A stretch of 64,000 nucleotides of DNA from Acidimicrobiales bacterium (GTDB lineage Bacteria; Actinomycetota; Acidimicrobiia; Acidimicrobiales; Bin134): positions 1,819,162 through 1,883,161 of the forward strand of contig OZ242339.1 in NCBI GenBank assembly GCA_965208505.1, given 5' to 3'. Shown in pieces: positions 5,745 to 12,471 of the stretch; positions within the stretch are counted from its first letter, which is position 1; each line of letters begins with the position of its first letter. Under the pieces are notes generated by a model. It ran no database searches. It was given only the letters and a program-made list of their open reading frames with translations, and was not told where the DNA came from. A program made the translations under genes and the position numbers.

Positions 5745-5806
5745 GATTTCCTCTTTGTAAGAGTTTTCATTGCTTTTCCATATACATAGCCTATTTTAAG
5801 TAAGGC

Positions 5807-6169
5807 ATGTTGTCCTACGAACTGTTCTCATTGGCGGCTGACCTGCGCCAGCAGGCTGCGGAATGCCAGCGGGTTCGAGATGACGTCGACCGGGTCTGGT
5901 ACGGGTTGGACCAAGTGCTCGCCGGACTAGTAGCGAGACACGGGAACGCAGTTTGGATGTCGGCCGCCGCCGACGCCAGCCGCCTACTGCTCCGCCACCA
6001 GCACAATCACCTGATTCGGCTCCGCTTCGAGATTGAGCAAGTGGCCCGCCGCCTCCAAGCGCGTGCCGACGAGCTCTATGCCGATGCCAACCGGGTCGAG
6101 TTGGCCGCCGAGGCAGCCCGACAGGACGAAGCCCGAGAACTCGGCATGCAAATCAGCTATTTTCAATAA
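5807..6169 (+). CDS. Small all-helical protein, possible divergent WXG100-like partner or substrate
   Basis: 120 aa with a helix-turn-helix-hairpin-like composition. The central turn ..HGNAVWMSAAADA.. has WMS where WXG is expected. Lies immediately upstream of a bona fide WXG100 gene and is preceded by an AT-rich intergenic region. Confidence 0.55.
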   Translation: MLSYELFSLAADLRQQAAECQRVRDDVDRVWYGLDQVLAGLVARHGNAVWMSAAADASRLLLRHQHNHLIRLRFEIEQVARRLQARADELYADANRVELAAEAARQDEARELGMQISYFQ

Positions 6170-6252
6170 ATATTTTGATATTTCACTATAATTGGGCTAT
6201 CAAGATAGGCAACCTGATCCCTCGAGGGATCCGACGAGTGAAAGGCCCTGCC

Positions 6253-6522
6253 ATGTCTGTATTGACCATGAACACCGAGGAGATGGATCATCTCCAACAG
6301 CAATTCACCGCTTTTGCCGGCCAGGTGGAAGATCTCCGCACCCGCCTGACCGCAACCCTGGAGGGGACCACATGGACGGGCAGTCGCTCGGTGCGGTTCC
6401 GAGGCGCTTGGCATGAGCAGTGGTCGCCCTCCCTAGGGCAGTTGCAAGAAGCGCTCGTAGAACTGTCCACCGCGGTGGGCCTCGAGCGACAGAACACCAT
6501 CGCGGCCCTCGACTCGATCTGA
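6253..6522 (+). CDS. WXG100 (ESAT-6-like) family type VII secretion substrate
   Basis: 89 aa counted from ATG 6253, which has a GAAAGG Shine-Dalgarno 8 nt upstream. The track ORF starts earlier, at 6175. A central W-T-G motif (LEGTTWTGSRS) sits between two predicted helices. Adjacent to the EccC-like ATPase. Confidence 0.8.
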   Translation: MSVLTMNTEEMDHLQQQFTAFAGQVEDLRTRLTATLEGTTWTGSRSVRFRGAWHEQWSPSLGQLQEALVELSTAVGLERQNTIAALDSI

Positions 6523-10742: not shown

Positions 10743-10987
10743 TGCCGCCACCAATTCGCTTTCGATCACTCAAAGCCGAAGAGCTGCGGTCCATGTTGTT
10801 CAAAGCTGGATTTGAAGCTGCGGGTACGAAGCGCAAGAGGGGCTCGCATCAACGACTTCGCCATCCAGATGGCAGAACTGTCACGTTCTTCTTTCACAAA
10901 GGGGTGACTGTTGGACCTGAACAGGTCAAACGTCTTCTGGTCGACAAGGCAAGGCTGAACGAGGACGAGATCAGGAGGATATTGTGA
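10739..10987 (+). CDS. hicA: HicA-family mRNA interferase toxin
   Basis: About 81 aa. LKAEELRSMLFKAGFEAAGTKRKRGSHQRLRHPDGRTVTFFFHKGVTVGPEQVKRLL matches the HicA/YcfA pattern, including the GSH motif. The likely ATG at 10742 overlaps the eccC TGA stop (TGATG). G+C is visibly lower than in the neighbours. Confidence 0.75.
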   Translation: MMPPPIRFRSLKAEELRSMLFKAGFEAAGTKRKRGSHQRLRHPDGRTVTFFFHKGVTVGPEQVKRLLVDKARLNEDEIRRIL

Positions 10988-11247
10988 ACAACATCTGCTC
11001 CCCCGAAAGCGAGGAATCCCCGATGAGGGAAGTGAGGGTCTTCTTCAACTCTGAAGAGGGTGCCGACTGGTGGTGCGAAGATGACGGTGACTTCATGGCG
11101 GTCGCTGATACCCCCGTACAACTCATGGAGTTGATCAGGACATGGCAAACCAGCCAGGGTATTGCCGACGTGCAACTTGTTCCGGTGGGCGTAGCCTCAG
11201 ACGTCGTTGCGGAGGAGGTCTTGGTGGGTCTCGCGGCGGACGACTAG
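10984..11247 (+). CDS. hicB: HicB-like (DUF1902-like) antitoxin candidate
   Basis: The GTG start overlaps the hicA stop (GTGA); an alternative ATG is at 11023. VRVFFNSEEGADWWCEDDGDFMAVADTPVQLMELIR resembles the HicB N-terminal/DUF1902 pattern. Position downstream of hicA is canonical. The last 17 codons overlap the lysA 3' end on the opposite strand. Confidence 0.5.
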   Translation: MNNICSPESEESPMREVRVFFNSEEGADWWCEDDGDFMAVADTPVQLMELIRTWQTSQGIADVQLVPVGVASDVVAEEVLVGLAADD

Positions 11248-12471
11248 GCGGGCGTCGCCGTTGCGGGCGAATACCACGGCGGGGCGGAGGACCTTGTTGT
11301 AGTTGGAGCCCATGGAGTGGCCGTAAGCGCCGGTCACCGGGGTGGCGAGGATGTCGCCCACCGCGATGTCGCTCGGCACCCAACCGTCTCGCACCAACAG
11401 GTCGCCCGACTCGCAATGCTTGCCCACCACCCGCGCTGCCTTATCGCGTTCGCGGTCGACCGCCCTCGGCAGGAACGTCTCATAGCCGCTGCCGTAGAGC
11501 ACTGGACGGGGGTTGTCGCTCATGCCGCCGTCCACCGAGATGTAGGTGCGGATGCCAGCCAGTTCCTTGATCGTTCCCACCTCGTAGAGCGTGACCGCGG
11601 CAGCCGCCACCAGGGCCCGGCCCGGTTCCACGCTCACCGGAGCGGTGAAGCCGACCGAAGCGCAGGCCTCGGCGATCGCCGCAGCCCACTCAGCAATGGT
11701 GGGGGCCGACTCCCCCTCCACGTAGGCCACTCCCAAGCCGCCGCCCAGGGACAGCTCGGGCAGGCCATAGGGCTGGGCGAATCCGGCGATCACCTCCACC
11801 GCCCGCTGGAACGAGCTCAGCTCGAACACCTGGCTGCCGATGTGGGCGTGCAGGCCCACCAGCTCCACCGAGTCAGCCTCCCGGGCCCGGCGGATGGCGG
11901 CGTCGGCCAGCCCGGTGGTGGCGGTGAAGCCGAACTTGGTGTCGTTCACTCCGGTGGTGACGTACTCGTGGGTGTGGGCCTCCACTCCCGGGGTGATCCG
12001 CAGCAGCACTTCGGGGCGGGCGCCGGTGGAGGCGTGGAGGGCGTCGAGGCGGTCGAGCTCGTCAAACGAGTCCACCACGATGCGGCCGACTCCGGCCTCG
12101 ACTGCGGCAGCAAGCTCATCGGCCGACTTGTTGTTGCCGTGCATCACCATGCGGTCGCCGGGCACGCCAGCGGCTTGGGCCACATATAGTTCCCCACCGG
12201 TGGCCACATCGATGTCGAGCCCCTCCTCGTGCACCAAGCGGGCCATGGCAAGGCATAGGAACGCCTTGGAGGCATAGGCCACCGATCCAGCGAAGGCGGC
12301 CCTGGCTTGGCGGCACCGCTCCCGCATGTGGTCCTCGTCGTACACAAAAAGCGGGGTCCCGAACTGCTCAGCCAACTCCAGCGTGTCGCATCCGGCGATG
12401 GACAATCGTCCGTCGCCGTCCACCGAGGCGTTGTCGGGCAGAAGGTGCAGGGGAAGCGCCGACATCGCCAT
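11197..12471 (-). CDS. lysA: Diaminopimelate decarboxylase
   Basis: 424 aa. TPLFVYDEDHMRERC.., the PLP-fold barrel and the CESGD motif (GKHCESGDLL) are typical of LysA. Sits directly downstream of argS. Confidence 0.95.
   Translation of the reverse strand: MAMSALPLHLLPDNASVDGDGRLSIAGCDTLELAEQFGTPLFVYDEDHMRERCRQARAAFAGSVAYASKAFLCLAMARLVHEEGLDIDVATGGELYVAQAAGVPGDRMVMHGNNKSADELAAAVEAGVGRIVVDSFDELDRLDALHASTGARPEVLLRITPGVEAHTHEYVTTGVNDTKFGFTATTGLADAAIRRAREADSVELVGLHAHIGSQVFELSSFQRAVEVIAGFAQPYGLPELSLGGGLGVAYVEGESAPTIAEWAAAIAEACASVGFTAPVSVEPGRALVAAAAVTLYEVGTIKELAGIRTYISVDGGMSDNPRPVLYGSGYETFLPRAVDRERDKAARVVGKHCESGDLLVRDGWVPSDIAVGDILATPVTGAYGHSMGSNYNKVLRPAVVFARNGDARLVVRRETHQDLLRNDV

Follow-up and report, generated by a model that had tools for sequence, protein, structure and literature searches.

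A conserved, reduced type VII secretion-like cassette between hom and lysA of sponge-associated Acidimicrobiia, with a predicted ubiquitin-like domain fused to its ATPase

How small can a type VII secretion system (T7SS) be, and can a hexamer of its EccC/EssC-type ATPase serve as the lone membrane channel? The T7SS field has no clear answer to either point. Both are raised by a locus of an Acidimicrobiales bacterium (NCBI GenBank assembly GCA_965208505.1, contig OZ242339.1, positions 1,819,162 to 1,883,161). This whole stretch of 64 kb, out of a 4.0-Mb genome, is called the window in the following and is what our component scans cover. Here the genes of a 120-amino acid (aa) protein termed p120, of a WXG100 protein and of a 1385-aa EccC/EssC-type ATPase lie together on the plus strand between hom and lysA. 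An earlier reading of the letters alone (the original prediction) saw in them a horizontally acquired, stripped-down T7SS-like module. We conclude, with a probability of about 0.6, that the cassette is a reduced export variant of the T7SS (ESX/Ess) kind, inherited vertically in Acidimicrobiia of the sponge-associated Candidatus Poriferisocius.

The cassette consists of the following features, the domains of the ATPase (TM, transmembrane; Ubl, ubiquitin-like) being given below their gene:

5745-5806, no strand: AT-rich divergent intergenic region of 62 nt, 32% GC (GC computation)
5807-6169, plus strand: p120 gene, encoding a 120-aa helix-turn-helix hairpin (AlphaFold 2, Foldseek)
6170-6252, no strand: intergenic region of 83 nt, 46% GC (alignments, GC computation)
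6253-6522, plus strand: WXG100 protein gene, 89 aa, W-T-G motif, EsxA/TsxA equivalent (PF06013)
6585-10742, plus strand: EccC/EssC-type T7SS ATPase gene, 1385 aa, with Ubl, FHA, two TM helices, stalk/DUF and three P-loop domains (Pfam, PDB, NCBIfam)
6585-6788, plus strand: ATPase aa 1-68, predicted ubiquitin-like β-grasp (AlphaFold 2, profile matches)
6810-7064, plus strand: ATPase aa 76-160, single FHA domain with degenerate phosphothreonine site (Foldseek, motif counts)
7200-7334, plus strand: ATPase aa 206-250, TM hairpin, followed by an Arg-rich cytoplasmic stalk (hydropathy, AlphaFold 2, conservation)
8355-9134, plus strand: ATPase D1, canonical Walker A (GTTGSGKS) and Walker B (VVIIDE) motifs (motif scan, conservation)
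9285-10739, plus strand: ATPase D2 and D3, degenerate Walker motifs (GIPGSGTT / LIDN and GPARSGRS / LIDD) (motif scan, conservation)

A Pfam scan and the list of open reading frames (ORFs) found every gene of the original prediction at its coordinates and on its strand, in the order proposed, and the two AT-rich spacers were likewise recovered. The most likely start of the WXG100 gene is the ATG at 6253.

The largest product carries most of the argument. Its best PDB matches are Thermomonospora curvata EccC (4nh0, E=3.7e-94), EccC5 (3e-54) and B. subtilis YukB (1e-52), and Pfam recognizes PF01580 twice along with a third P-loop. In NCBIfam, the EssC (TIGR03928), EccCa and EccCb models are matched at E-values of 1e-87 to 1e-135, with bit scores below their respective cut-offs (452/778, 372/509 and 292/347). 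FtsK and TraB score far lower than the T7SS ATPases in both PDB and NCBIfam. The protein thus has what the generic T7SS core asks of its motor, i.e. a membrane EccC/EssC-type FtsK/SpoIIIE ATPase with two TM helices, a stalk/DUF region and multiple P-loops. Judged by its sequence, it is a true T7SS motor. The two TM helices of the original prediction were seen in a hydropathy scan as two adjacent hydrophobic segments at about aa 207-250. In the AlphaFold 2 (AF2) model of the ATPase, built with 18 homologues, helices cover aa 211-227 and 231-290; the second TM helix runs into a long stalk helix and the hairpin has almost no outside loop. Across 54 orthologues, this hairpin (mean conservation 0.88) and D1 (0.88-0.98) are the best conserved segments. 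Only D1 keeps canonical Walker A and B motifs; D2 (GSGTT / IDN) and D3 (SGRS / IDD) are degenerate and, by analogy with EccC/EssC, probably have regulatory or substrate-binding roles.

Degenerate D2 and D3 motifs, an FHA site that has been lost (see below) and the lack of accessory genes could also mean that the cassette no longer exports anything, being a decaying relic or having its ATPase repurposed for handling DNA or other macromolecules or for signalling; FtsK/SpoIIIE relatives do translocate DNA, and FtsK and TraB are among the matches. We regard this as improbable. Degenerate D2/D3 motifs also occur in functional EssC/EccC proteins, and the T7SS ATPase scores stand far above those of FtsK and TraB. 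Furthermore, the ORFs are intact in more than 20 species and evolve under purifying selection, with the TM hairpin and D1 under the strongest constraint. As medians over ~150 pairs, the ratios of nonsynonymous to synonymous substitution rates (dN/dS) are 0.15 for p120, 0.06 for the WXG100 gene and 0.21 for the ATPase, compared to 0.08-0.14 for the four flanking housekeeping genes, so the WXG100 gene is as constrained as they are. These patterns suggest that function has been maintained.

The N-terminus of the ATPase holds two domains, Ubl and FHA, that are absent from the original prediction. In the AF2 model, aa 1-65 form a ββαββ..β β-grasp with a predicted local distance difference test score (pLDDT) of 81-90, and a β-sandwich at aa 76-159 is matched by Foldseek to the FHA domains of GarA/OdhI at E-values of ~1e-5 to 1e-6. 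A profile of the first 70 residues, drawn from 35 family members, matches ubiquitin-like PDB chains (best E=2.5e-5) and, more weakly, the ubiquitin-like domains of EccD5 (E=0.029), EccD1 and Snm4 (YukD/EccD range E=0.029-0.46). Because model, Foldseek and profile matches converge, the predicted architecture is Ubl-FHA-TM2-stalk/DUF-D1-D2-D3, in which aa 1-68 would be a fused equivalent of EsaB, YukD or the EccD ubiquitin-like domain. In the window the predicted Ubl is fused to the ATPase, and a free Ubl gene was not found in its 64 kb. Among the described systems T7SSa-j, three parts are near-universal, namely the ATPase, a WXG100 protein and a small protein of the ubiquitin-like type (Garrett, Higginson & Palmer 2024, PMC11217815). 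In the cassette, all three would be present in two genes.

In the case of the WXG100 protein, Pfam gives PF06013 at E=1.8e-7, above the gathering score, and the W-T-G motif is present; against TIGR03930 it reaches 38 bits, under the cut-off of 44.85. Its exact sequence belongs to a 94-member cluster that carries the NCBI name WXG100 family T7S target. Another element of the generic T7SS core, a WXG100-family protein encoded beside the ATPase, is therefore there as well. Identity among relatives is 84-97%, and still 84-88% in genomes where the ATPase is only 49-52% identical. Because the protein is so much more conserved than its ATPase (median dN/dS 0.06 vs 0.21), a constraint beyond docking to the motor is suggested, for example by an extracellular target.

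The p120 protein is less easily placed. Its AF2 model is a hairpin (pLDDT 89, helices 2-51 and 53-119); the turn, W50-x-S52, is invariant, and the protein has a conserved YFQ tail at its C-terminus. The top ~30 Foldseek matches in the PDB are all Esx/WXG100 hairpins, at E-values of 0.1-0.3 and TM-scores of up to 0.84; Pfam gave no match and NCBIfam nothing meaningful, and sequence homologues are confined to the Poriferisocius lineage. At L069, a Microthrixaceae locus, a hairpin-sized protein with W-R-G occupies the position of p120, and small WXG-like genes are often paired in distant family members. Because of the hairpin model, the Esx structural neighbours, the L069 protein and these gene pairs, we read p120 as a putative divergent EsxB-like or WXG100-like paralogue. 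Of the two small helical substrates that had been proposed, one is thus recognized by Pfam and the other is a predicted two-helix hairpin that has no Pfam match.

Which membrane partners accompany the motor? Pfam scans of the ~55 ORFs in the window revealed no EccB, EccD, EccE, MycP, EssB, EsaA, free YukD or protein kinase. The proposed absence of T7SSa and T7SSb accessory genes from the window therefore holds, and so does the view of a stripped-down T7SS-type module whose ATPase is the only membrane protein at the locus. The ±10 kb around the ATPase gene of L001-L005 and L027-L029 likewise contained no EccB, EccD, EccE or MycP. To place these results in the wider family, the N-terminal module (Ubl-FHA-TM-stalk) was matched against a library of 50%-identity representatives, where it hits 1,888 clusters at E≤1e-30. 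The architecture is widespread: most of the top 150 matches span almost the whole module, as a rule at the N-terminal end of ~1,400-aa proteins or of fragments of these. Around the distant relatives examined, from other Acidimicrobiia, Streptosporangiaceae and Myceligenerans, two kinds of gene recur apart from housekeeping genes, those of WXG-like proteins and that of a ~480-aa single-pass membrane Ser/Thr kinase. The kinase gene adjoins that of the ATPase in L005, L027 and L028; in L029 it is found 6.6 kb upstream, and in L042 the ATPase gene is directly followed by a kinase-family ORF. None of these distant contexts contained a membrane part of T7SSa or T7SSb.

The kinase link has a counterpart within the ATPase itself. 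In distant homologues the phosphothreonine site of the FHA domain retains its Ser in 44/51 and its NG loop in 43/51 cases. Of 57 members of the Poriferisocius clade, which keeps GR, all have Arg in place of the Ser and 55 have lost the NG loop; no kinase is found in the 64 kb of the window or within ±10 kb of the ATPase in L001-L004. The ancestral ATPase family was probably controlled by the membrane Ser/Thr kinase through its FHA domain. Because the neighbouring kinase and the FHA binding site are both gone, the pattern argues that phospho-control was abandoned in the Poriferisocius lineage, and not that the kinase gene was relocated. This paired loss amounts to a natural experiment on T7SS gating.

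These observations bear on the main rival reading, namely that the cassette is the conserved core of a larger T7SS whose other membrane or regulatory parts (the Ser/Thr kinase, proteins like TsdH/TsdI of T7SSd, or others) are encoded elsewhere in the genome. We consider this possible and, on the present evidence, rather doubtful. It would agree with the extra membrane components that every characterised T7SS requires (PMC11217815, PMC12637312), with the single-pass kinase and occasional unannotated ORFs that adjoin distant ATPase relatives, and with the coverage of 64 kb out of a 4.0-Mb genome. However, neither the window nor the ±10 kb surroundings in L001-L004 contain such a gene, 20 species relatives share a gene order whose spacers are too short to hide one, and no polytopic membrane protein family recurs across nine independent contexts. 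The loss of the FHA site argues for a kinase link abandoned and not moved, and the predicted Ubl is already fused in.

The second part of the reduced-variant reading concerns descent, for which the neighbours of the cassette are required:

2995-4401, minus strand: thrC (Pfam)
4398-5744, minus strand: hom, homoserine dehydrogenase, left flank (Pfam Homoserine_dh, NAD_binding_3, ACT)
10742-10987, plus strand: hicA toxin gene (PF07927, E=3.7e-9)
11023-11247, plus strand: putative hicB-like antitoxin ORF, 74-87 aa, 74 aa for the probable start at 11023 (position, Shine-Dalgarno sequence and ATG at 11023)
11197-12471, minus strand: lysA, diaminopimelate decarboxylase, right flank (Pfam Orn_Arg_deC_N, Orn_DAP_Arg_deC)
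12476-14110, minus strand: argS (Pfam)

ATPase homologues carry the name Candidatus Poriferisocius, a sponge-associated genus of the Acidimicrobiales, and 20 related genomes were found in a scan with one genome per species. Wherever a locus extends over both flanks, the order is thrC-hom, then p120, an optional amidohydrolase gene, WXG100 and ATPase, then lysA-argS. Spacers are nearly fixed at 62, 83-86 and ~62 nt. The hom gene, in the window transcribed divergently from the cassette, adjoins it in 24/24 related loci. Two outgroups (L003, L004; ATPase 49-52% identical) have the triad divergent from hom as well, with aro genes on the other side. In a neighbour-joining tree the Poriferisocius ATPases form one clade in 100/100 bootstraps.

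In the original prediction, a horizontally acquired module had split the block between lysA and hom, which we take to mean a recent event in this genome. The orientation opposite to the flanks, the AT-rich borders, the low GC and patchy occurrence of hicAB, and the contiguity of lysA and hom in many other Acidimicrobiia would all fit such an event. We nevertheless reject it as extremely improbable for the three core genes, because in all of the relatives lysA and hom are separated by these genes too, the very pattern that the original prediction had named as pointing to an ancestral arrangement. The cassette occupies this junction in 20/20 species representatives, and its spacer lengths are conserved; the G+C content of the cassette and its G+C at third codon positions (GC3) equal those of hom and match the flanks. 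All three genes are under purifying selection (dN/dS 0.06-0.21), the outgroups keep the cassette beside hom, and the Poriferisocius ATPases are monophyletic. By these comparisons, the cassette is old, conserved and vertically inherited in this lineage.

The other half of the claim, that a conserved block is split, fared better. Among 80 hom-retrieved Acidimicrobiia loci (L030-L109), argS-lysA-hom is contiguous in 37, and unrelated inserts fill the lysA|hom gap in 26, the junction being variable across the class. As argS-lysA-hom-thrC is contiguous in those 37/80 loci, the cassette is, by gene order, an interruption of this older gene block. In 11/80, the gap contains the same ATPase family. 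These eleven include four deep Acidimicrobiales lineages, L042, L050, L069 and L094, with hom 63-68% and ATPase 37-42% identical to those of the window; WXG-like genes are present at L042, L069 and L094, and at L050 one was looked for and not detected. A single ancient insertion, deduced from monophyly of the lysA|hom-junction ATPases, was not supported, since the tree recovers such a group in 0/100 bootstraps. With junction ATPases that are not monophyletic, the tree is compatible with two histories: the position may be ancestral and relocations may have come later, or the junction may be a hot spot that was used repeatedly. As a separate observation, L037 and L041 have a truncated 282-aa protein-kinase-like ORF at lysA|hom and no ATPase, which is possibly the remnant of a lost cassette.

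Within the interval, only hicAB looks like a recent addition, an accessory passenger and not part of the conserved cassette, because of its low GC, its distribution over two genomes and its low divergence between them. Specifically, hicA has 52% GC (GC3 0.55) compared to 65-69% for the ATPase and flanking genes. Among 24 loci, hicA and its partner ORF occur only in the window and in L007, and the two copies (window 10739-11247; L007:14173-14500) are 95-97% identical, compared to 84% for the adjacent ATPase. The insertion replaces the last ~6, otherwise conserved, ATPase codons, and the 3' end of the hicB-like ORF overlaps that of lysA by 51 nt; L018 keeps a remnant of the second hic ORF only. 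Like HicAB type II toxin-antitoxin modules, the pair shows a HicA Pfam match, two small close-packed ORFs (the hicA stop overlaps one candidate start of the second), low GC and patchy distribution. Unlike them, the second ORF, which is called as a gene in the sequence collection, has no detectable HicB signature. Its identity as HicB found no confirmation, Pfam at E≤1 and phmmer against the PDB being both empty; it carries the label by position only. The low G+C noted for hicAB in the original prediction was thus found for hicA, and the name of its partner was not confirmed.

A second variable element is a 416-aa Amidohydro_2 gene, located between the p120 and WXG100 genes in 16/22 Poriferisocius-clade loci (for instance L001:8321-9571) and absent from the window (6170-6252), L002, L007, L009, L012 and L021. 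L028 has a similar layout, with a small helical gene, a 558-aa ORF (weak DUF6571 match) and a WXG gene. One idea is that the middle gene could be cargo.

Further variable DNA lies outside the interval. In the outgroups, large Pfam-less ORFs (L003:1382-6044 with 703, 565 and 185 aa; L004:3852-5870 with 672 aa) are found near the cassette, between thrC and a phosphoglycerate-mutase gene; the Poriferisocius loci do not have them. In the window, ~5.4 kb of extra DNA (14149-19600) follow a tRNA-Arg(CCG) (14149-14222); besides several family-less ORFs, they contain genes for an AbiEii-type toxin (15636-16934) and an Abhydrolase_3 protein (18588-19556). In L001, a Band_7 gene follows argS almost directly. 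This region looks like a tRNA-associated island. At the other end (window 1-2918), an RCC1-repeat protein gene (1695-2918, plus strand) lies downstream of thrC, with 48-54% GC at 1-1000, and relatives have an apgM-like phosphoglycerate mutase, rho, rpmE and prfA at this position; the segment is a local replacement or rearrangement.

The spacers of the cassette were considered next to its genes. The 5745-5806 region has a motif, TTGMTTTTC...TATTTTA, kept across relatives together with its length, and is likely the promoter region of the p120 gene, a function inferred from these features. The 6170-6252 region carries a conserved TTGATATTTC motif and, at ~6213-6234, an inverted repeat CTGATC-N7-9-GATCAG (GATCCCTCGAGGGATC in the window), with the WXG100 ribosome-binding site, GAAAGG, directly 3' of it. 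The repeat is conserved in L001 and L007-L025, 20-40 nt upstream of the WXG100 start, with or without an upstream amidohydrolase gene. Since variation in the repeat is slight and clear compensatory changes are missing, it could equally be an operator or a leader hairpin. The spacer between WXG100 and ATPase genes is 62 nt long, GC-rich and without predicted terminator; since, in addition, hicA overlaps the ATPase stop codon, 6253-11247 is probably one transcript. A scan with consensus promoters and terminators returned weak matches and no internal terminator, the consensus being uninformative for a high-GC organism.

Altogether, the reduced-variant reading can be cast as a mechanism. Six copies of the 1385-aa ATPase would assemble in the membrane, with TM hairpins, stalks and DUF domains forming a channel. 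This is proposed because EccC is at the centre of ESX complexes and YukB forms the central T7SSb channel, and because TM hairpin, stalk and D1 are best conserved. The N-terminal Ubl would bind the DUF/FHA region and stabilize the assembly in cis, as YukD/EsaB or the EccD ubiquitin-like domain do in trans. D1, as the only domain with canonical Walker motifs, would power export by ATP hydrolysis, and the degenerate D2 and D3 would bind and sense substrate. The WXG100 protein and p120 would be the exported core substrates or activators, whether paired in the manner of EsxA and EsxB or each as a homodimer. WXG100 would leave the cell alone or together with p120 and may activate the motor, and a candidate docking signal is seen in the YFQ tail of p120. 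Because there is no kinase at the locus and the FHA phosphothreonine residues are lost, control would now be transcriptional, through AT-rich promoter regions upstream of p120 and WXG100, with the palindrome beside the WXG100 ribosome-binding site having a modulating role. The cassette would have entered the lysA|hom junction long ago, with hicAB as the only recent arrival.

Several points weigh against this mechanism. All characterised T7SSs require further membrane proteins, and partners may be encoded elsewhere, as 64 kb of the 4.0-Mb genome were examined. The turn of p120 is W-x-S and not W-x-G, the protein has no Pfam match, and Foldseek E-values as weak as these would be given by any simple hairpin. 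In 16/22 related loci, the amidohydrolase gene parts the two small genes. Lastly, the Ubl model is of medium confidence (overall pLDDT 77, predicted template modelling score 0.35) with modest profile E-values, and a specific kinship to YukD/EccD is weak.

A stronger version would make the Ubl-FHA-EccC ATPase and two WXG-like proteins a complete, self-sufficient export machine. It would stand for a large family (~1,900 clusters) of minimal T7SSs in the monoderm Actinomycetota, some gated by a kinase and others kinase-free, of which open-access text gave no description. We put this forward tentatively, as a possibility that could well turn out otherwise. If true, this would be the simplest natural T7SS, in which the ATPase hexamer alone makes up the membrane channel and the Ubl assembly factor is built in. 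If partners are encoded elsewhere, the finding shrinks to one more T7SS subtype. As a system with one membrane protein and a fused Ubl, it would be a compact target for reconstitution and cryo-EM. Its universality in one lineage of sponge symbionts and the strong constraint on WXG100 point to a role between symbiont and host or between symbiont and other microbes.

Finally, the cassette was compared with the known T7SS types. As in T7SSa (ESX), two small Esx-like genes lie upstream of the ATPase, and the best match of solved structure is the T. curvata EccC. A ubiquitin-like domain would also be part of both machines: in T7SSa those of EccD bind the same EccC DUF surface (PMC12637312), and the YukD-like domain of actinobacteria has been described as occurring invariably in fusion with EccD, a protein of 12 TM helices (Iyer et al. 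2006, PMC1779556); here it would sit in the ATPase. Unlike ESX loci, neither the window nor the neighbourhoods of relatives contain EccB, EccD, EccE or MycP, and the ATPase has an FHA domain that EccC does not have. Its D1 is 32% identical to that of the EccC reference (1391 aa, EccC5 length), compared to 41-48% for the reference ATPases of T7SSb-j, all references being machine-read from a supplementary PDF. Membership in T7SSa was therefore rejected, on the missing EccB, EccD, EccE and MycP and on the EccCa and EccCb cut-offs.

With T7SSb (Ess/Yuk), the cassette shares an N-terminal FHA on the ATPase, a Ubl component that contacts, or here would contact, the ATPase, and an ATPase thought to be the central channel; in T7SSb, YukB is this channel, and free YukD binds its DUF and FHA regions and permits assembly (Oka et al. 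2025, PMC12637312). The differences are that the predicted Ubl is fused and not free, that there is one FHA and not two, and that the EssB/YukC pseudokinase, EssA and EsaA/YueB are missing from the window. Together with the missed EssC cut-off and the absence of a free YukD from the window, these led us to reject T7SSb membership.

The sole Ubl exception among the described types is T7SSd, an actinobacterial five-gene system of Olsenella and Bifidobacterium composed of TsdA, TsdC (FHA), TsdD (kinase), TsdH (a small 1-TM protein) and TsdI (a large secreted Ig-like protein) (PMC11217815). Like T7SSd, the cassette is actinobacterial and small, combines a WXG100 protein with an FHA-bearing EccC/EssC-type ATPase with two TM helices, and has neither EccB/D/E/MycP nor a free ubiquitin-like protein; distant relatives of the ATPase are paired with a kinase, as TsdC is with TsdD. 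In contrast, the FHA motifs of TsdC (GR, SxxH, NG) are 90-100% conserved (PMC11217815, Table S1), and those of the window ATPase are lost. The window protein has the predicted Ubl and one FHA; the N-terminus of TsdC aligns with the tandem-FHA region of EssC and misses the Ubl profile. In D1 the ATPase is 41% identical to TsdC, less than to the reference of any other subtype from b to j (43-48%), so it appears to have no special affinity to T7SSd. Nor does the locus hold a kinase or a TsdH-like or TsdI-like gene: all ORFs of the cassette are accounted for, spacers measure 62-83 nt and no large Ig-like ORF is nearby. T7SSd membership was rejected on these grounds: no kinase in 64 kb, lost FHA motifs and no TsdH or TsdI at the locus.

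As to the undescribed minimal architecture of the original prediction, the phrase is fair in part. Variants from T7SSa to T7SSj were already known (PMC11217815). Of the predicted Ubl-FHA-EccC fusion, open-access text yielded no description, neither of a Ubl fused to an EccC-type ATPase nor of a T7SS in Acidimicrobiia or Poriferisocius. The best reading is therefore that the cassette is a reduced variant of a known T7SS kind, and that its noteworthy features are the predicted fused Ubl and the degenerate FHA.

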